A program made the position numbers and the translations under genes. A stretch of DNA of 5,878 bases from a virus (taxonomy: Duplodnaviria; Heunggongvirae; Uroviricota; Caudoviricetes): the IMG/VR virus record IMGVR_UViG_2531839473_000007. The stretch is one strand, 5' to 3'. Shown piece by piece: positions 1-5,878 of the stretch. The notes beneath the pieces are model-generated. The model worked only from the letters and a program-made list of their open reading frames with translations. It was not told where the DNA came from and ran no database searches. How positions within the stretch are numbered: the stretch's first letter is position 1; each line of letters starts with the position of its first letter.

Positions 1-43
1 CGGAGCAGACGCTCACGCTGTGCGATGATGTGCGGGCCTGCCG

Positions 44-1930
44 GTGTACGGGGAGATACCGTTTAACCCGAACACCCGTGAGGTGACGACGGCGTGCATC
101 AGCCTGTTCCGCTACCAGGCGCAGGTGCGGCCCTCGCAGGTGCGTTCAAAAGACCACACGTTTAAGGTGCCGGACTGGCCGGGTATTTACATTGAGGATG
201 CTGAAAACCTCAACGGGCAACTGAAGCAGTACAAAATCCTGGACTGGCCGGGGCGCTACAAGGACGAGCAGCATGGTCAGGACTTTACCCGCTACCGGCT
301 GGAAGGGCTGCGTAACAGTGCTGAAACCGCCACAGGTATCAGTAACTCCCCGGCGCTGTGGCCGGGACGGCGGTTCACCCTGACGGGGCATCCGGTACAG
401 GGAGCGAACCCGAACCGTGAGTGGCAGGTGGTGAGCAGCACGCTGACGGGGAGCCAGCCGCAGGCGCTGCACGGCAGTCACGGTGAAGGAACGACGCTGA
501 GTAACCAGTTTGAGGTGATACCGGCAGACAGGACGTGGCGTCACGCGCCGCTGCCGAAGCCGAAGGTGGACGGCCCGCAGAGTGCCATCGTGACCGGGCC
601 GAAGGGCGAGGAGATATTCTGCGACGAACATGGCCGGGTACGGGTGAAGTTTCACTGGGACCGTTATCACGGTATGACGGAGGAGAGTTCATGCTGGATA
701 CGGGTGTCGCAGGCGTGGGCGGGAGCGGGGTTCGGTAATCTGGCGATACCGCGTGTGGGTCAGGAAGTGATAGTGGACTTTCTGAACGGGGACCCGGACC
801 AGCCCATCGTCACGGGACGCACCTACCATGAGGACAACCGTTCACCGGGGGATTTACCGGGCACGAAGACGCAGATGACGATACGGTCGAAGACCTATAA
901 AGGAAGCGGATTTAACGAGCTGCGGTTTGAAGACGCCACGGGCGGTGAGCAGGTGTATATCCATGTGCAGAAGAACATGGACACGGAGGTGCTTCACGAC
1001 CGGACGACGGACGTGAAGCATGACCACACGGAGACCATCGGGAACAACCAGAAAATCACGGTGGGGCTGGGCCAGACGGTGACGGTGGGGAAAGAGAATG
1101 CCGGAGGGCATGACCAGACCATCACGGTGGCCCATGACCGGAGCATCACGGTGCGCAACGACCAGACGCTGAAGGTGACGAACGACCGGCGGGTGAACGT
1201 CAGCCACGATGACGGTCTGTACGTCAGAAACGACCGAAAGGTGACGGTGGAAGGGAAGCAGGAGCACAAAACGACAGGAAACCACATCAGCCTGGTGGAG
1301 GGAAAACACAGCCTGGAGGTGAAAGGCGACCTGGCGAGGAAGATTACCGGCGCGCTGGGAATGAAGGTCCGGGATGAAATCGTACTGGAGAGCGGCGGTA
1401 AAATCACCCTGAAGGTGGGCGGCTCGTTCGTTGTCGTTCATTCTGGTGGCGTGGATATTGCCGGGCCGAAGATAAACCTGAACGGCGGGGGCAGTGCGGG
1501 GACACCGGTGGGGACGATGCAGCCGGGTGTACTGGCGGCGCTGGCGGATGACGGGGGTGATGAAGAAGGCGAAGATGACGGGCAGGGCAATGGCGACTCC
1601 GGTGATGGAGAGGGGGGGGCCGGAGATGATGATAGTGGAAACGATTCGGACAATTCAGATGATGATGAAAAGGAAATTGTTTCTATTAGTTGGTCCTATG
1701 GTAACAATCGGACAAAAGTTCAGGATACATCCAGACACTATGTAGACCTCAATCTCCATGTGCAGACAAAAGGGTATAGTCCTGGGGAAAGTGTGTCCGT
1801 CGAAATAAAATATGATGACTTTGATGGTATGGAAAGATCTCTTGCTGTTAGCGGCACGGTAGATGAATCAGGTGAGATGGTTGTTGAGCAGGTTTTATCT
1901 GGGGCAGACGTCTGTACTTTAGATGAGTAG
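44..1930 (+). CDS. vgrG: T6SS spike protein VgrG (vgrG1), 3' portion with C-terminal extension. The open frame starts at GTG 44 after a TGA at 26-28, but the vgrG reading continues upstream in another frame (apparent 1-bp deletion near nt 30-32), so this is a frameshifted gene or a sequencing error.
   Basis: Translation carries VgrG core motifs (FKVPDWPGIYIEDAENLNGQ, YKDEQHGQDFTRYRLEGLRNSAETATG, FHWDRYHG, gp5-like beta-helix repeats such as VKHDHTETIGNNQKITVGLGQTVTVG). It aligns residue-by-residue with the vgrG2 N-terminal region at 5509-5878. Stop TAG at 1928-1930. Confidence 0.9.
   Translation: MYGEIPFNPNTREVTTACISLFRYQAQVRPSQVRSKDHTFKVPDWPGIYIEDAENLNGQLKQYKILDWPGRYKDEQHGQDFTRYRLEGLRNSAETATGISNSPALWPGRRFTLTGHPVQGANPNREWQVVSSTLTGSQPQALHGSHGEGTTLSNQFEVIPADRTWRHAPLPKPKVDGPQSAIVTGPKGEEIFCDEHGRVRVKFHWDRYHGMTEESSCWIRVSQAWAGAGFGNLAIPRVGQEVIVDFLNGDPDQPIVTGRTYHEDNRSPGDLPGTKTQMTIRSKTYKGSGFNELRFEDATGGEQVYIHVQKNMDTEVLHDRTTDVKHDHTETIGNNQKITVGLGQTVTVGKENAGGHDQTITVAHDRSITVRNDQTLKVTNDRRVNVSHDDGLYVRNDRKVTVEGKQEHKTTGNHISLVEGKHSLEVKGDLARKITGALGMKVRDEIVLESGGKITLKVGGSFVVVHSGGVDIAGPKINLNGGGSAGTPVGTMQPGVLAALADDGGDEEGEDDGQGNGDSGDGEGGAGDDDSGNDSDNSDDDEKEIVSISWSYGNNRTKVQDTSRHYVDLNLHVQTKGYSPGESVSVEIKYDDFDGMERSLAVSGTVDESGEMVVEQVLSGADVCTLDE
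1547..1675 (+). other. Acidic low-complexity linker inside vgrG1 (D/E/G/S/N-rich, about 43 codons) between the VgrG core and the C-terminal domain; contains a G8 homopolymer.
   Basis: Translation ADDGGDEEGEDDGQGNGDSGDGEGGAGDDDSGNDSDNSDDDEK. Nucleotide composition switches from GC-rich to AT-rich within this segment. Confidence 0.8.
1612..1619 (+). repeat. G8 homopolymeric tract inside the vgrG1 coding sequence (codons GAG GGG GGG GCC).
   Basis: Eight consecutive G read directly at 1612-1619. Confidence 0.9.
1676..1927 (+). other. VgrG1 C-terminal extension domain of unknown function (about 84 aa, AT-rich); candidate cargo or adaptor-binding module.
   Basis: Translation KEIVSISWSYGNNRTKVQDTSRHYVDLNLHVQTKGYSPGESVSVEIKYDDFDGMERSLAVSGTVDESGEMVVEQVLSGADVCTLDE follows the gp5-like repeats and acidic linker. 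Its composition matches the downstream AT-rich cassette, not the vgrG core. Confidence 0.5.
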
Positions 1931-2095
1931 TTGTTTGGTAATATATGGCTGATGTTGTTGAATAAGAATTATATGATTAGCTGATCATTTAGATGACAGA
2001 ATACATACTACTATGTTGTATTCACTTAAAGTCTGGCGATTGTTTACATGACAGTTTTACGTGATACTTATTCGTTGAATCAGTAAGGGCTTATT

Positions 2096-2236
2096 ATGGC
2101 AAAAAAAGTTACAGCTAGTGCGGGAAAACAAAAATCGACTGTTAATGTAAAAAGACCTGCATGGTCTGATGTATATGAAGGATATCCAAAAGTTAATGGA
2201 GGTACTGAAATTGAGAGTGATTTGCCTATGAAATAA
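2096..2236 (+). other. N-terminal segment (46 codons) of the tae4-like effector gene, ending at an in-frame TAA (2234-2236) and continuing in the same frame as ORF 2237-2662.
   Basis: ATG at 2096 with Shine-Dalgarno TAAGGG at 2084-2089 (6-nt spacer). Translation MAKKVTASAGKQKSTVNVKRPAWSDVYEGYPKVNGGTEIESDLPMK. Same frame as the downstream catalytic ORF, separated only by TAA. Confidence 0.5.
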
Positions 2237-2662
2237 TTGTTTACATCAATTTTTGGGCCTGATTATGATACTACGCAATTCAATAATGGTTGTGCTACAA
2301 GAGTATCTCTTGGATTACTTTCTGAAGGATTAAAAAGAGTGGGGGAAAGAGATATTGTTATTAGTGAAAAATCTCATATCCATTATGGGAAATCAATAGA
2401 GCCCGGAGCTGCAAGATTAAAAGATTTTCTGATAAAAATATGGGGAAATGCAGATTATGTCATTAAATATCCTCTAAGCTTTGACGATGTAAGCTCGGTA
2501 TTAAATGATAAAAAAGGTGTTTATATAATGGTTTATAAAAGACCTGCGGATCATGGTGGTGCTACGGGACATGCTACACTATGGACTGGTAACAGAGCCA
2601 TTGGCGGTAATGACCATGCTGATTCCAGTGCTTTTGCAATCTATTTTTGGGAATTGAAATAA
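2237..2662 (+). CDS. Tae4-like T6SS peptidoglycan amidase effector (papain-like Cys-His hydrolase), catalytic portion. Likely a pseudogene or disrupted gene, because the natural start and RBS lie upstream at 2096 beyond an in-frame TAA.
   Basis: Motifs NNGCATRVSLGL (candidate catalytic Cys) and GHATLWTGN (candidate catalytic His), followed by GGNDHAD, fit the Tae4-family pattern as recalled. Size and AT-rich composition suit an effector cassette. The only in-frame start before the Cys is TTG at 2237, with no RBS. Confidence 0.55.
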   Translation: MFTSIFGPDYDTTQFNNGCATRVSLGLLSEGLKRVGERDIVISEKSHIHYGKSIEPGAARLKDFLIKIWGNADYVIKYPLSFDDVSSVLNDKKGVYIMVYKRPADHGGATGHATLWTGNRAIGGNDHADSSAFAIYFWELK

Positions 2663-3096
2663 TGAAAGCTATATTTTTTATATTCTGTATTTTTTTTATG
2701 GGAAATTCATTGTTATATTCAGAGGCTAAAGCCAGTGAATCAGAAAGTACTCTGGATGATTATAAAATATTTACACTCGCTAAATGCATTACCAGTAATT
2801 ATGAAAAAATGGGGGTTGATTTTACAAAACTACCATTGAAAGATAACACTATGGGATTTATTGATATTGATGCTGGACTCGCTTTTTATCGAAATAAGGA
2901 TAGTGTTTTAGCATCTTTCATTAATAAAAAAACAGGGGGTTTTTACAGGCCAAAACAAACTAGTGGTGATTTAGCATCTTCAAATATGGTTATATACGAC
3001 TGCGTAAATTTTTATCATTCAAAAGAGTTGGGTGTATTTCTAAAAAAAATCATTCATGAGAGGACTGTCGAAATTGAGAGAAACGCACTCGAATAG
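2662..3096 (+). CDS. Periplasmic immunity protein candidate (Tai4-like by synteny) with an N-terminal signal peptide.
   Basis: ATG at 2662 overlaps the upstream stop (TAATG). Signal peptide MKAIFFIFCIFFMGNSLLYSEAKA, then a hydrophilic mature protein of about 120 aa. Sits immediately downstream of the amidase effector, as in effector-immunity pairs. The ORF-track start (TTG 2647) is less plausible than ATG 2662. Confidence 0.5.
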   Translation: MKAIFFIFCIFFMGNSLLYSEAKASESESTLDDYKIFTLAKCITSNYEKMGVDFTKLPLKDNTMGFIDIDAGLAFYRNKDSVLASFINKKTGGFYRPKQTSGDLASSNMVIYDCVNFYHSKELGVFLKKIIHERTVEIERNALE

Positions 3097-3271
3097 ATAA
3101 TTCTGGCGGTGACTTTGTTTTTTTTGGATGCAATGCAATATATAAAAATTGTATTTGTTCGAAAATAATATAAAATATCCGAGAAAAATATCATTCGCTA
3201 TTAAAGTGTCTAAGCGTTTTTACATAAGTACTTTACATCGTTTAGTTTAAAAACGCGGCTATCAATAAATG

Positions 3272-3288
3272 TCGCAAAGGATTTGCGA
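3272..3288. promoter_or_regulatory. Perfect 7-bp inverted repeat TCGCAAA-gga-TTTGCGA about 45 bp upstream of the PAAR start, in an AT-rich intergenic region; candidate operator or promoter element.
   Basis: Palindrome read directly. TTGCGA within it could serve as a -35-like hexamer, with TATACA about 19 bp downstream. No strong assignment. Confidence 0.25.
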
Positions 3289-3331
3289 TATAATTCAATA
3301 TGTAAATTATACAACACATAAGGAAATTTAT

Positions 3332-3616
3332 ATGCCCACAGCAGCCAGACTCAGCGATAAAGGCACCCAGCATGACGGTTATTATGAGACCGCCATTATT
3401 GCAGGCTCCTCCTCCGTCTTTATTGATGGTATGCCCGCCGCCCGTCAGGGCGATCCGCTGACACCGCATTCCAAACCCGACCATCCCCCTCACCCCCGTA
3501 AAATCGCAGGCGGCTCTGCCACTGTCTTTATTGACGGTAAACCTGCCGCCAGAACCGGCGATGCCATTGACTGTGGCGGCGTGGTTATCGGTGGCGGCAC
3601 GGTAAATATAGGCTGA
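3332..3616 (+). CDS. Stand-alone PAAR-domain protein (T6SS spike-sharpening tip), 94 aa.
   Basis: Three PAAR-type motifs (TAARLSD, PAARQGD, PAARTGD) with G/I-rich beta-strand spacers. Shine-Dalgarno AAGGAAA 6 nt before ATG 3332. Stop TGA at 3614-3616. The ORF-track upstream ATG at 3269 lacks an RBS, and the PAAR domain begins at Met 3332. Confidence 0.9.
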   Translation: MPTAARLSDKGTQHDGYYETAIIAGSSSVFIDGMPAARQGDPLTPHSKPDHPPHPRKIAGGSATVFIDGKPAARTGDAIDCGGVVIGGGTVNIG

Positions 3617-3705
3617 TTAATTATCAGGGAGGCTGTATGCCCTCAGAAGGATTACGTTTCACGCTGTCGGTGGCCGGCATTGTGGAGATGGCGACGGCGG
3701 TGGTC
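3612..3705 (+). repeat. Direct repeat copy 1 (about 94 bp, about 90 percent identical to 4898-4987): TGATTAAT junction, Shine-Dalgarno GGGAGG, and the first 23 codons of vgrG.
   Basis: Alignment by eye: gctgattaat..cagggagg..atgccctcagaaggattacgtttcacgctgtcggtggccggcattgtggagatggcgacggcggtggt versus the vgrG2 5' region. Confidence 0.9.
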
Positions 3706-4398
3706 GTAGAGGACGGCATATTTGGAAAAAATACATACGACGCAGTGAAAATATTTCAGCGGTATAATGGGTTAAATGATGATGGCATCGTAGGGCCACA
3801 AACCTGGCGGAAATTGGGTGTTCCTGAACTTTTAACGCGAAGTTCATCAGGCTCTCCCGCCAGCCCTTCTTCGGGGCCATCCCGGAGCCCTTCTGCTGAT
3901 TCAAATGGTACTGTTGCTGAGACTGGTGATGGATTCTGTTTCCCATTCCCTGCACTTCCTGCGAGATCGTGGACAAACGGCGGTCGTCAATTTGGGGCGT
4001 CACGCAGTGGGGGCCGCAGACATGCCGGTTGTGATTTGATATTCCCCCGAGGAACGCTTATTTATGCTGTTGCTGATGGCATATTAGTTCAGCCCCCATA
4101 TCCATTTTACGAAGGTACTTCTGCTGTAGAAATTAGACATGGCAACCTTCTCCTTCGCTATGGTGAAATTATTAATGGGTCATACGTAGGTGGGCAAACG
4201 GTTCAAAAAGGTCAGGTTATTGCTAAGGTAGGAAGGCTGCATTCGGGTTCATCTATGTTGCATCTGGAGATTTATACGAATGCGACCTTATCGGGTGACC
4301 TTACAGATCGCAACAGAGCGCCTTATCAAAGACGTTCTGATGTGACAGATCCTGCCCCATATCTGGATATCTGGAAAAATAACCTGCCTACCCTCTGA
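3637..4398 (+). CDS. Chimeric putative T6SS effector: vgrG-derived N-terminus (23 aa), then a partial peptidoglycan-binding (PG_binding_1-like) motif, a Ser/Pro-rich linker and an M23/LytM-like peptidase domain.
   Basis: N-terminus MPSEGLRFTLSVAGIVEMATAVV matches the vgrG2 start MSSEGLRFTLSVDGIVEMATAVV. DGIFGKNTYDAVKIFQRYNGLNDDGIVGPQTWRKLG matches the second half of the PG_binding_1 consensus. M23-like blocks: HAGCD (HxxxD), GTLIYAVADGILV, VEIRHGNLLLRYGEI, GQTVQKGQVIAKVG, SMLHLEIY, VTDPAPYL. Shine-Dalgarno GGGAGG precedes ATG 3637. Confidence 0.75.
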   Translation: MPSEGLRFTLSVAGIVEMATAVVVEDGIFGKNTYDAVKIFQRYNGLNDDGIVGPQTWRKLGVPELLTRSSSGSPASPSSGPSRSPSADSNGTVAETGDGFCFPFPALPARSWTNGGRQFGASRSGGRRHAGCDLIFPRGTLIYAVADGILVQPPYPFYEGTSAVEIRHGNLLLRYGEIINGSYVGGQTVQKGQVIAKVGRLHSGSSMLHLEIYTNATLSGDLTDRNRAPYQRRSDVTDPAPYLDIWKNNLPTL

Positions 4399-4417
4399 TG
4401 TTTAAGGAATCAATAAA

Positions 4418-4882
4418 ATGTTCAAAAAGATAATACTATTTTTAACGGTGATATCTTCGAGTTTTGTTGTTTGTCTTGCGGCTGATTCAGAAAAGATATT
4501 ATCAGTAGATCCTGTTGTGAATAATTTTGGCGTTGATGAAGTCGTAGGGTTGCCTCATCCTGTTTGTACTTTGAGTCTGGCTGAAAATAATGAGAAACAT
4601 CTTTATAATTATGTTGAGGGCGGTATCTGCCCTGTGGGCGGTGAAAGTTGTCCTTATTCAGCCGTCATAAAACTGAATGGCAAGATGGCGATATTAAAAC
4701 AGATATCGACAAATAAAAATATCAGTTTTTTTAAGAATGATGAGGTATCGATTATCACAACACAAAGCCCAGTTAAAGGAGCTGTGGTGGATGAAGAGGG
4801 TGGTGATGTGAATGCCGTTATTGTAATCAAAACAAAAAATAGCGAAATAAAACTTAATATGTCCGGGTACTGTGGTATTTAA
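4418..4882 (+). CDS. Putative periplasmic immunity protein for the M23-like effector (secreted, Cys-containing, no family recognised).
   Basis: Signal peptide MFKKIILFLTVISSSFVVCLA followed by ADSEK. Four Cys in the mature part (C50, C71, C78, C152). Shine-Dalgarno AAGGA 9 nt before ATG 4418. AT-rich. Immediately downstream of the effector. Confidence 0.5.
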   Translation: MFKKIILFLTVISSSFVVCLAADSEKILSVDPVVNNFGVDEVVGLPHPVCTLSLAENNEKHLYNYVEGGICPVGGESCPYSAVIKLNGKMAILKQISTNKNISFFKNDEVSIITTQSPVKGAVVDEEGGDVNAVIVIKTKNSEIKLNMSGYCGI

Positions 4883-4897
4883 AACCGGGCTATTATC

Positions 4898-4987
4898 GCT
4901 GATTAATCAAGGGAGGTCATATGTCCTCAGAAGGATTACGTTTCACGCTGTCGGTGGACGGTATTGTGGAGATGGCGACGGCAGTGG
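4898..4987 (+). repeat. Direct repeat copy 2: the authentic vgrG2 translation-initiation region and first 23 codons.
   Basis: Same alignment as copy 1; gctgattaat at 4898-4907, GGGAGG at 4911-4916, ATG at 4921. Confidence 0.9.
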
Positions 4988-5878
4988 TGAGCTTCCGTCT
5001 GTACCAGCACCACTGCACACCGTTCATCCTGGATGTGGATATCGCCAGCGGACTGTCTGACCTGACGGCGGAGGATTTTCTGGAGAAAAGCGCGGTGCTG
5101 ACGGTCTGGCAGGGCGACACTGCACAGCGTTACGTCAGCGGTATCGTGACGGAGGTGCAGCTCGGTGAGAACAACGACTGGCAGATGCGTTATTCCCTGA
5201 GCATCAGCCCGCCGCTGTGGCGGGCAGGGTTACGGCAGAACTTCCGTATCTTCCAGCAGCAGGACATCGGGACGATATCAGCACAGCTTCTTGAAGAGAA
5301 CGGGGTGACGGCGTGGATGCCGCTGTTCTATGAGGCGCACCCGGCGCGGGAGTTCTGCGTGCAGTACGGGGAGAGCGACCTGGCGTTCCTGACCCGGCTG
5401 TGGGCGGAGGAAGGTATCTTCTTTTATGAGCGCTGCAGTCAGGAAGGGCCGGAACAGAAGCTGGCGGTGTGTGATGACGTGGCGGGGCTGACGGGAATGG
5501 GGGCGCTGGCGTTTAACCCGGACACGACGACCGGGGGAACGACGGAGTACATCAGCGAGTTTCGTTACCGTGCGCAGATAAGCGTGGCGTCGGTGGAGAC
5601 GCAGGATTATACGTTCAAAACGCCGGGGTGGCCGGGGTACTACAGCCATGCCGGGGAGAGCCTGAACGGGCAGGGAACGCAGTACGAGATATTTGATTAT
5701 CCGGGGCGTTTCAAGGATGAGCAGCACGGCCAGGACTTTGCGCGTTACCAGACGGAAGGGTGGCGGAACGGGGCGGAGACGGCGAGCGGGGTGTGTAACA
5801 CGGCGCGACTGTGGCCGGGAACGCGGTTCCGGCTGACGGGCCATCCCTCAGGGACGCTGAACCGGGAATGGCAGGTTG
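4921..5878 (+). CDS. vgrG: T6SS spike protein VgrG (vgrG2), N-terminal about 319 codons; 3' end beyond the window.
   Basis: Open frame from ATG 4921 to the window end with no stop (translated by hand). Begins MSSEGLRFTLSVDGIVEMATAVVSFRLYQ and continues with VgrG core motifs (TFKTPGWPGYY, FKDEQHGQDFARYQTEGWRNGAETASG). Strong Shine-Dalgarno AAGGGAGG. Confidence 0.92.
   Translation, partial: MSSEGLRFTLSVDGIVEMATAVVSFRLYQHHCTPFILDVDIASGLSDLTAEDFLEKSAVLTVWQGDTAQRYVSGIVTEVQLGENNDWQMRYSLSISPPLWRAGLRQNFRIFQQQDIGTISAQLLEENGVTAWMPLFYEAHPAREFCVQYGESDLAFLTRLWAEEGIFFYERCSQEGPEQKLAVCDDVAGLTGMGALAFNPDTTTGGTTEYISEFRYRAQISVASVETQDYTFKTPGWPGYYSHAGESLNGQGTQYEIFDYPGRFKDEQHGQDFARYQTEGWRNGAETASGVCNTARLWPGTRFRLTGHPSGTLNREWQV

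Follow-up and report, generated by a model that had tools for sequence, protein, structure and literature searches.

Gene content of the locus

This analysis concerns recombination between vgrG genes, which encode type VI secretion system (T6SS) spikes, in a stretch of 5,878 nucleotides (nt; hereafter the window) from the IMG/VR record IMGVR_UViG_2531839473_000007. The window is 99.966% identical to the chromosome of Escherichia coli MFDS1022581 (NZ_CP169399.1). It corresponds to positions 12001-17879 of the T6SS-1 locus of this strain (hereafter L001), from which it differs by one substitution and one 1-nt indel, and the RefSeq annotation of L001 was used for context. L001 covers the hcp end of a T6SS-1 (Sci-1-type) cluster, with tssF-tssE-tssC-tssB and hcp upstream and yafV-ivy-fadE downstream. 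PAAR, Tae4 and M23 domains, a deviating GC content and the adjoining T6SS core genes characterize the window as an array of effector-immunity cassettes, and it is part of the variable vgrG island of an ordinary E. coli T6SS-1 cluster.

All genes of the window lie on the + strand (Table 1). Read with its surroundings, the array runs head to tail in the order (PAAR-vgrG1-Tae4-immunity)-(PAAR-vgrG'::M23-immunity)-(vgrG2-Tla1-Tli1-Tle1), and a vgrG0-M35 module lies upstream. The vgrG cores have a GC content of ~60%, the C-terminal domain of vgrG1 and the Tae4 cassette 32-36%, the M23 gene ~50% and its putative immunity gene ~38%. Since the GC content of the cassettes is low, their horizontal acquisition is suggested.

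Table 1. Features of the window discussed in the text (positions in nt from the first letter of the window)
Feature	Position	Strand	Evidence
vgrG1, 3' two-thirds	1-1930	+	Pfam Phage_GPD, Phage_base_V, Gp5_trimer_C
Conserved vgrG1 core able to recombine	470-1030	+	87-99% identity to vgrG2
vgrG1 to vgrG2 allele switch interval of the N96 hybrid; boundary of 5' and 3' modules	997-1027	+	diagnostic sites
Tae4-family amidase gene, in-frame TAA at 2234-2236	2096-2662	+	Pfam Tae4; homology to Serratia Ssp1
Putative Tae4 immunity gene, signal-peptide-like N-terminus	2662-3096	+	position only
PAAR spike-tip gene	3332-3616	+	Pfam PAAR_motif, E=1.1e-20
vgrG 5' remnant, ribosome-binding site and first 23 codons	3612-3704	+	direct repeat of 4898-4988
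Chimeric open reading frame, partial PG_binding_1 and complete M23 peptidase domain	3637-4398	+	Pfam
Putative M23 immunity gene, signal-peptide-like N-terminus	4418-4882	+	position only
vgrG2 5' part, ATG at 4921, gene runs past the window edge	4905-5878	+	Phage_GPD, E=2.8e-74
vgrG0 to vgrG2 allele switch interval of MFDS1019527	5271-5279 (conservative 5096-5279)	+	diagnostic sites

Both vgrG1 and vgrG2 belong to the VgrG/TssI family, and RefSeq labels both as TssI/VgrG in L001. The open reading frame of vgrG2 in the window (4921-5878) matches positions 6-294 of the 305 positions of the Phage_GPD profile. In vgrG1, the Phage_GPD match concerns the C-terminal part of this domain (E=1.5e-25) and is followed by Phage_base_V and Gp5_trimer_C. 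In L001, vgrG1 encodes an 820-aa protein (11469-13931, RefSeq), and the real start of the gene lies 532 nt before the first letter of the window. Compared with MFDS1022581, the window lacks 1 nt at 31/32 (GTGGCGGG to GTGCGGG), a deletion that shifts the vgrG1 frame; because it breaks the frame, an open-reading-frame finder begins the gene at GTG 44, and the start given at this position in the preliminary description of this DNA is an artefact. The deletion is either a real pseudogene mutation of this strain or a sequencing error. Towards its 3' end (1540-1927), vgrG1 encodes an acidic Asp/Glu/Gly-rich linker of ~45 residues, then a low-GC C-terminal domain of ~85 residues (~1670-1927). This domain had no Pfam match, and a PDB sequence search gave chance-level hits only; it is presumably a cargo-binding domain for the Tae4 cassette.

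Homology between the vgrG paralogs

The preliminary description recognized two vgrG paralogs in direct orientation, which is borne out by the domain matches and by the common + strand. It also described 44-430 and 5509-5878 as closely similar cores containing long stretches of near identity. Nucleotide alignment contradicts this second point, with 249 matches over 391 columns (63.7%, or 68.0% of the ungapped columns; 25 gap columns) and an amino-acid identity of 60%. Exact runs do not exceed 12 nt (CTGTGGCCGGGA), only two of them reach at least 10 nt, and in windows of 50 columns the best score is 41/50 and the median 32/50. At the site encoding KDEQHGQDF (260-286 vs. 5713-5739), 24 of the 27 nucleotides are identical, in exact runs of at most 9 nt. 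A repeat search returned only short fragments of 69-77% identity for this pair of segments, and blastn with a word size of 11 gave no alignment of 44-207 to vgrG2. Such a resemblance is expected of a GC-rich protein-coding domain present in two diverged versions.

Exchange by RecBCD/RecA in E. coli reportedly requires ~23-27 nt of perfect identity. As possible substrates of RecA-type exchange, we considered directly oriented pairs of sequences with uninterrupted identity over at least ~25 nt. Segments 44-430 and 5509-5878 do share the same orientation, but with a longest run of 12 nt their identity is too low and too patchy for them to serve as an exchange substrate.

Usable homology was found in other parts of the same genes. 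L001 contains three full vgrG genes, namely vgrG0 (5515-7827), vgrG1 and vgrG2 (from 16922), the last being interrupted by the insertion sequence (IS) IS21. We reconstructed vgrG2 from L001 by removing IS21 and then aligned the three genes. In bins of 100 nt, the identity between vgrG1 and vgrG2 is 57-72% over window positions 1-400, 78% at 401-500, 96-99% at 501-800, 87-90% at 801-1000 and 79-95% at 1001-1500; beyond ~1500 it drops to 52%, then to 37%, and then homology ends. Across alignment columns 1000-1400 the two genes are 93-100% identical. Their conserved part contains exact runs of 146, 53, 41, 33 and 31 nt, the longest at about window 528-673. As the vgrG2 partner of the vgrG1 core begins just past the right edge of the window, this core homology is invisible from the window alone.

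The 5' part of vgrG2 has a different partner. Window positions 4905-5878 are 98.8% identical to positions 5499-6472 of L001, in vgrG0, and over the 5' 1.5 kb of vgrG2 the identity to vgrG0 is 98.8-100%, with exact runs of up to 271 nt. The vgrG0 copy of this repeat lies ~11.4 kb upstream of vgrG2, outside the window and in direct orientation. In windows of 100 nt, vgrG0 and vgrG2 share 94-100% identity over the first ~1,550 nt and ~70% afterwards. Conversely, vgrG0 and vgrG1 are only 60-87% identical in their 5' part and 100% identical at alignment columns 1600-1700 (an exact run of 161 nt), where vgrG2 is only 70% identical; up to column 1562, vgrG0 equals vgrG2. Judging from these alignments, the vgrG paralogs are mosaics. 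The long exact runs in the vgrG1/vgrG2 cores and in the vgrG0/vgrG2 5' parts, together with the hybrid products described below, indicate that the real substrates are vgrG1 ~470-1030 with the off-window part of vgrG2, and vgrG2 4905-5878 with the off-window vgrG0.

The sole substitution between the window and MFDS1022581 is located in the latter repeat: at position 5612, which distinguishes vgrG0 from vgrG2, the window has C, the vgrG0 allele, in place of T. This may fit a short gene-conversion tract, or may be a chance single-nucleotide polymorphism.

Probable natural recombinants of the locus

Two sequenced strains carry this locus minus one interval between vgrG genes, with a hybrid vgrG at the junction. 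In E. coli MFDS1019527, the locus comprises hcp, one vgrG with IS21, tla1 (DUF4123), three tli1 genes (DUF3304) and tle1, followed by the same downstream genes as in L001, with which it also shares the IS21 insertion. Relative to L001, exactly 11,405 bp are absent. Outside the repeat, the left flanks (~5.9 kb) of the two strains differ by 2 substitutions, and the right flanks (~15.9 kb) show 3 substitutions and 5 indels. The single vgrG of MFDS1019527 has the upstream region of vgrG0 and the vgrG0 alleles at nt 175 and 348-350, then the vgrG2 alleles at all 12 diagnostic sites between nt 360 and 1362. This distribution places a single switch from vgrG0 to vgrG2 between nt 350 and 360, which would be the crossover of an 11.4-kb deletion. 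The DNA of the Tae4 and M23 cassettes was not found anywhere in the MFDS1019527 genome.

The second recombinant, strain N96, has the order hcp-vgrG0-M35 peptidase-ORF (open reading frame)-PAAR-vgrG-tla1-three tli1a-tle1. It lacks ~5.4 kb, that is the 3' end of vgrG1, Tae4 and its putative immunity gene, the PAAR gene, M23 and its putative immunity gene, and the 5' part of vgrG2. It is also devoid of IS2 and IS21 and carries many further substitutions. Up to alignment column 1531, the second vgrG of N96 agrees with vgrG1 at 323 of the 327 diagnostic sites; from column 1563 on, it agrees with vgrG2 at 168 of 174. The last vgrG1-type site corresponds to window 996 and the first vgrG2-type site to window 1028, which places the switch between them. 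A vgrG1 × vgrG2 hybrid of the kind predicted in the preliminary description therefore exists, with its switch in a part of the gene other than the one proposed. Each of the two strains shows what would be expected of one reciprocal crossover between direct vgrG repeats. At the level of the locus, the comparison of strains thus supports the prediction that tandem vgrG paralogs in direct orientation favour the loss or shuffling of cassettes; the pair 44-430 and 5509-5878, to which this had been attributed, is not the substrate.

The paralogs can be described by two types of 5' part, A (vgrG0, vgrG2) and C (vgrG1, N96 hybrid), and two types of 3' part, B (vgrG0, vgrG1) and X (vgrG2, N96 hybrid). 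All four combinations exist, and all switch within alignment columns ~1532-1562. This common interval speaks for recurrent exchange at the point where the conserved core ends. One could go further and regard these ~31 nt (vgrG nt ~1530-1560) as a discrete, reusable exchange site for 5' and 3' modules throughout the genome, with arrays growing by the integration of circular vgrG-cassette intermediates in an integron-like manner, but we consider this improbable. Chi sites were ruled out as the cause of the switch points, since the window contains none.

In vgrG2 of L001, IS21 is inserted at nt 1542/1543 of the gene (L001 18463/18464 to 20585) with a CGTG target duplication. The insertion site, found in L001 and MFDS1019527, is homologous to window 1010/1011 of vgrG1 and thus falls inside the 31-nt interval of module switching. 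This may be a coincidence or reflect a shared hot spot. The idea that vgrG2 is a new chimera formed at the IS21 site was withdrawn, because the same junction exists uninterrupted in another vgrG island, at yibF/selA, in four genomes. In MFDS1022581 itself, the yibF/selA locus (positions 1442-7977 of the region extracted, L010) carries a further tandem vgrG pair, whose second gene has the uninterrupted junction (99.7% identity over 640 nt). Overall, the vgrG sequence of the window is matched at up to 8 places per genome.

A vgrG remnant fused to the M23 gene

A third block of vgrG homology, at a duplicated vgrG start, had also been pointed out. It is real: 3612-3704 aligns with 4898-4988, and all three blocks are in direct orientation. 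The two copies share 83 matches over 97 alignment columns (89-91% identity; blastn E=3e-27), with exact runs of 33 nt (3641-3673 = 4925-4957) and 20 nt, the former just above the minimal substrate length. A search of 5,426 complete E. coli genomes revealed no product of a deletion between them. Such a product would have the window-type PAAR gene directly before vgrG2; the candidates were rejected, as this PAAR gene is present at >95% identity only in E. coli PapRG-04-4 and ET350, whose vgrG is diverged, with 83-84% identity to vgrG2. The 93-nt start would thus be at best a marginal substrate for a deletion of 1,284 bp.

The same two strains are informative on the origin of the remnant. Window positions 3322-3704 are 97.7% identical to their PAAR gene and vgrG start, and the vgrG that follows is annotated as intact in PapRG-04-4 and is frameshifted in ET350. 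In the window, vgrG homology stops at 3704/3705, and VgrG residues 1-23 are joined in frame to an effector from its residue 31 onward, giving a chimera of 253 aa. Beyond 3705, this chimera is 99% identical to a stand-alone effector of 260 aa (P0001 in our protein set), the first 30 residues of which (MTAILWMFSNNSDVKKLQQLLNRNEFTPVL) are replaced by the VgrG residues. It matches Peptidase_M23 and positions 22-57 of the 57 positions of PG_binding_1, the first 21 being gone. An illegitimate deletion best explains the block 3612-3704, which would be its scar: the body of the PAAR-linked vgrG and codons 1-30 of the effector would have been lost, and the junction shows no more than 1 nt of microhomology. 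With 59 Escherichia contigs carrying it, the chimera is stably maintained in the population.

Two other origins were considered and rejected. On two related contigs (L004 and L005), the 3' part of Tae4, the immunity gene and the PAAR gene are followed by ~50 nt of a vgrG remnant and then by an intact M23 gene, preceded by ~170 nt of its native upstream region. The chimera is not a simple deletion derivative of this arrangement because the remnant is shorter there (~50 nt vs. 69 nt); the junctions are therefore independent. The spacer between the remnant and the M23 start in L004 had no match, except for its M23-proximal ~110 nt in a further contig, L006. Descent from an evolved VgrG similar to V. 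cholerae VgrG-3 through an internal deletion was also discarded: the close homologues are stand-alone proteins of 247-265 aa with PG_binding_1 and M23 domains, and none of the 120 homologues listed (of 165 with E<=1e-5) has a VgrG domain. The chimera itself, with 23 VgrG residues only, does not have the full core followed by an enzymatic domain that defines an evolved VgrG.

At the canonical HxH position of the peptidase (window 4240-4275, residues ~203-213), all close homologues have M-L-H-L-E, the first His being apparently absent. The open reading frame 4418-4882, without a Pfam match, is a putative immunity gene by its position, and it accompanies the M23 gene on the contigs L004, L005 and L006 as well. 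In L006 (Logan contig ERR4852834_188), the M23 cassette comes after a pyocin-S/colicin-DNase cassette, and downstream of the M23-immunity cassette (5110-5396) a vgrG start of ~195 nt is joined to vgrG from ~nt 1505 on; this short vgrG is either an internally deleted gene or a chimera of short-read assembly.

The Tae4 cassette and the decay of the array

The Tae4 match (52 bits vs. a cut-off of 27) concerns the residues encoded from 2237 onward. The product aligns with Serratia Ssp1, its catalytic Cys facing C50 of Ssp1 and a His of a GH motif aligning further on. The gene has a low GC content (~33%). The in-frame TAA lies 19 codons before the catalytic Cys, and the same stop is found in L001, where RefSeq gives two coding sequences. 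The amidase domain is thus present in an interrupted reading frame, and the gene is likely to be a pseudogene or to encode an N-terminally truncated product. The ATG of the following open reading frame (2662-3096) overlaps the Tae4 stop codon; it had no Pfam match, and gene order makes it the putative immunity gene. DNA of the Tae4 cassette was detected in only 1 of the 5,426 complete E. coli genomes.

Several genes of the array are damaged: Tae4 has its stop, M23 lacks its N-terminal part, the window carries a frameshift in vgrG1, and IS21 interrupts the vgrG2 of L001. Both putative immunity genes are intact. This state fits the known decay of effectors with retention of immunity genes (PMC5361080).

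Probable recombination between vgrG cores and alternative explanations

We consider it likely that this vgrG island evolves through its conserved cores acting as portable homology, with recombination deleting or inserting modules and leaving a hybrid vgrG each time, the pair 44-430 and 5509-5878 being too divergent to take part and the duplicated start being a scar. In each vgrG, the 5' core is conserved and rich in GC, and the 3' end is specific to the module. RecA-type recombination between two direct cores would delete the intervening DNA and leave a hybrid vgrG, and the same core homology would admit incoming modules by insertion. The mosaic identity of the paralogs and the two strains with a hybrid vgrG in place of an interval are observed; that the events were deletions rather than insertions, and that they depended on RecA, is inferred.

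Several points weigh against this interpretation. Recombination was deduced from sequences and not observed directly, and sequences give no direction, as the integration of a circle (the reverse crossover) or replacement by incoming DNA would yield the same junctions. The flanks of N96 are 0.5-1.8% diverged, so its history may comprise several steps. For MFDS1019527, the local haplotype at nt 348-363 of the hybrid vgrG also exists in another paralog, hence the more conservative crossover interval of nt 176-359. The uninterrupted vgrG2-type junction of the yibF/selA island (99.5-99.7% over 640 nt in the four genomes) indicates that dispersed paralogs may also contribute, via gene conversion between islands. 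Finally, an assembly collapse of the repeat in MFDS1019527 or N96 is conceivable.

The question of direction leads to the alternative with the greatest weight, namely that the long array was built by gain, incoming vgrG-cargo modules having entered a shorter ancestral locus either after horizontal transfer, by double crossover in vgrG and in flanking homology, or through a circular intermediate, with spontaneous intrachromosomal deletion playing a minor role. The low GC of the cassettes, the presence of Tae4 cassette DNA in that single complete genome and the linkage of M23, immunity gene and vgrG in unrelated metagenome contigs at 99.3-99.5% identity all agree with such a gain, and junctions at the same position in both vgrG copies are also expected of a reverse single crossover. 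The near-identical flanks of MFDS1019527 and L001 and their common IS21 point instead to one recent event, for which deletion between 1.5-kb repeats of 99% identity is simpler. We regard predominant gain as possible but rather doubtful; vgrG homology would be used either way, and the direction would change without the mechanism changing. That the hybrids are false, produced by the collapse of near-identical vgrG repeats during assembly, appears very improbable. Such a collapse would yield precisely a hybrid gene with one switch, but both assemblies are at chromosome level and long reads easily span repeats of 0.5-1.5 kb. Moreover, 5.4-11.4 kb of unique cassette DNA are wholly absent from the two genomes, whereas a collapse usually leaves an orphan contig, and N96 differs by its many substitutions and the lack of both insertion sequences.

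The literal form of the earlier claim, in which 44-430 and 5509-5878 would themselves recombine through long near-identical stretches, is hardly credible. Both segments encode the same part of Phage_GPD and share the 27-nt patch at KDEQHGQDF; however, their 63.7-68.0% identity and 12-nt longest run are under the ~23-27 nt of perfect identity given above, and neither natural hybrid switches within them. As for the duplicated start, it might have been kept for function rather than left as a scar, its strong ribosome-binding site and start, or the VgrG N-terminal peptide, aiding the expression or loading of the truncated M23 protein. The in-frame fusion does keep the AGGGAGG ribosome-binding site and the whole M23 domain, and the chimera persists on its 59 contigs. 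The loss of the first 21 positions of the PG_binding_1 profile and the decay of the neighbouring genes (the Tae4 stop, the vgrG1 frameshift in the window and IS21 in the L001 vgrG2) speak against such a role, as do the related contigs that pair a different, out-of-frame vgrG remnant with an intact effector, showing that the remnant is not needed. We judge this role quite improbable and retain the scar of an illegitimate deletion as the explanation of the duplicated start.

T6SS effector and immunity repertoires determine which strains are able to coexist, and mapping recombination in spike genes indicates how fast weapons can be lost or swapped in an E. coli lineage. The three sequenced strains, which differ by one inter-vgrG interval each and carry hybrid spike genes, could be used to design a polymerase chain reaction assay of deletion rates. 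For annotation, short vgrG 5' fragments fused to cargo genes should be read as recombination scars, and short-read assemblies may break or collapse at tandem vgrG repeats.

Comparison with known systems

The locus is an E. coli instance of the vgrG-mediated module exchange known from Vibrio, Agrobacterium and Pseudomonas, with unusually clean natural recombinants, and requires no new mechanism. In agrobacteria, a recombination hot spot lies in the conserved COG3501 part of vgrG, and recombination in the core moves the vgrG 3' end along with the adaptor, effector and immunity genes that follow it (Wu et al. 2021, mBio, PMC8546570). The agrobacterial loci also combine a conserved 5' core with a cargo-specific 3' part and have paralogs with closely related cores within the same genome; here, 5' and 3' modules change partners at about vgrG nt 1530-1560. 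The paralogs studied here differ in standing in tandem within one E. coli T6SS-1 cluster, and for this reason the same homology also yields deletions. The agrobacterial evidence is a genus-wide network, compared with three sequenced strains in the present case.

In V. cholerae, effector-immunity modules are exchanged or inserted by homologous recombination with variable lengths of vgrG (Kirchberger et al. 2017, Sci Rep, PMC5361080). The mosaic T6SS clusters, the homology in vgrG 5' parts and the immunity genes kept while effectors decay are common to both systems (PMC5361080). V. cholerae has one vgrG per cluster and orphan immunity arrays, whereas this locus stacks whole PAAR-vgrG-cargo modules and retains remnants of vgrG 5' ends. 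In P. aeruginosa, effectors are swapped by both homologous and homology-facilitated illegitimate recombination (PMC11751169). The hcp/vgrG islands of Pantoea and Erwinia have a high-GC vgrG core and a low-GC C-terminal extension and cargo (De Maayer et al. 2011, BMC Genomics, PMC3235180). The same GC step is present here at ~1650, while recombination and tandem vgrG paralogs were outside the analysis of that study.

Two further systems can be compared from the side of the toxin cassettes and of the cluster type. Orphan-toxin arrays of Rhs and CdiA reportedly rearrange via their repeated cores, so that cassettes are swapped or deleted and truncated core fragments are left. In both cases, alternative toxin-immunity cassettes lie between directly repeated copies of a conserved core. 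The repeated unit of those arrays is the rhs or cdiA core, to which the toxin is fused; in this locus it is the spike gene vgrG, with toxins encoded by separate cargo genes. The Sci-1 T6SS of enteroaggregative E. coli, the reference locus with its VgrG1-Tle1-Tli1 module, is said to have a single vgrG. It belongs to the same cluster type, and the terminal module vgrG-Tla1(DUF4123)-Tli1(DUF3304)-Tle1 is likewise found downstream of vgrG2, but the lineage described here carries up to three and a half vgrG genes together with Tae4, M23 and M35 cassettes.

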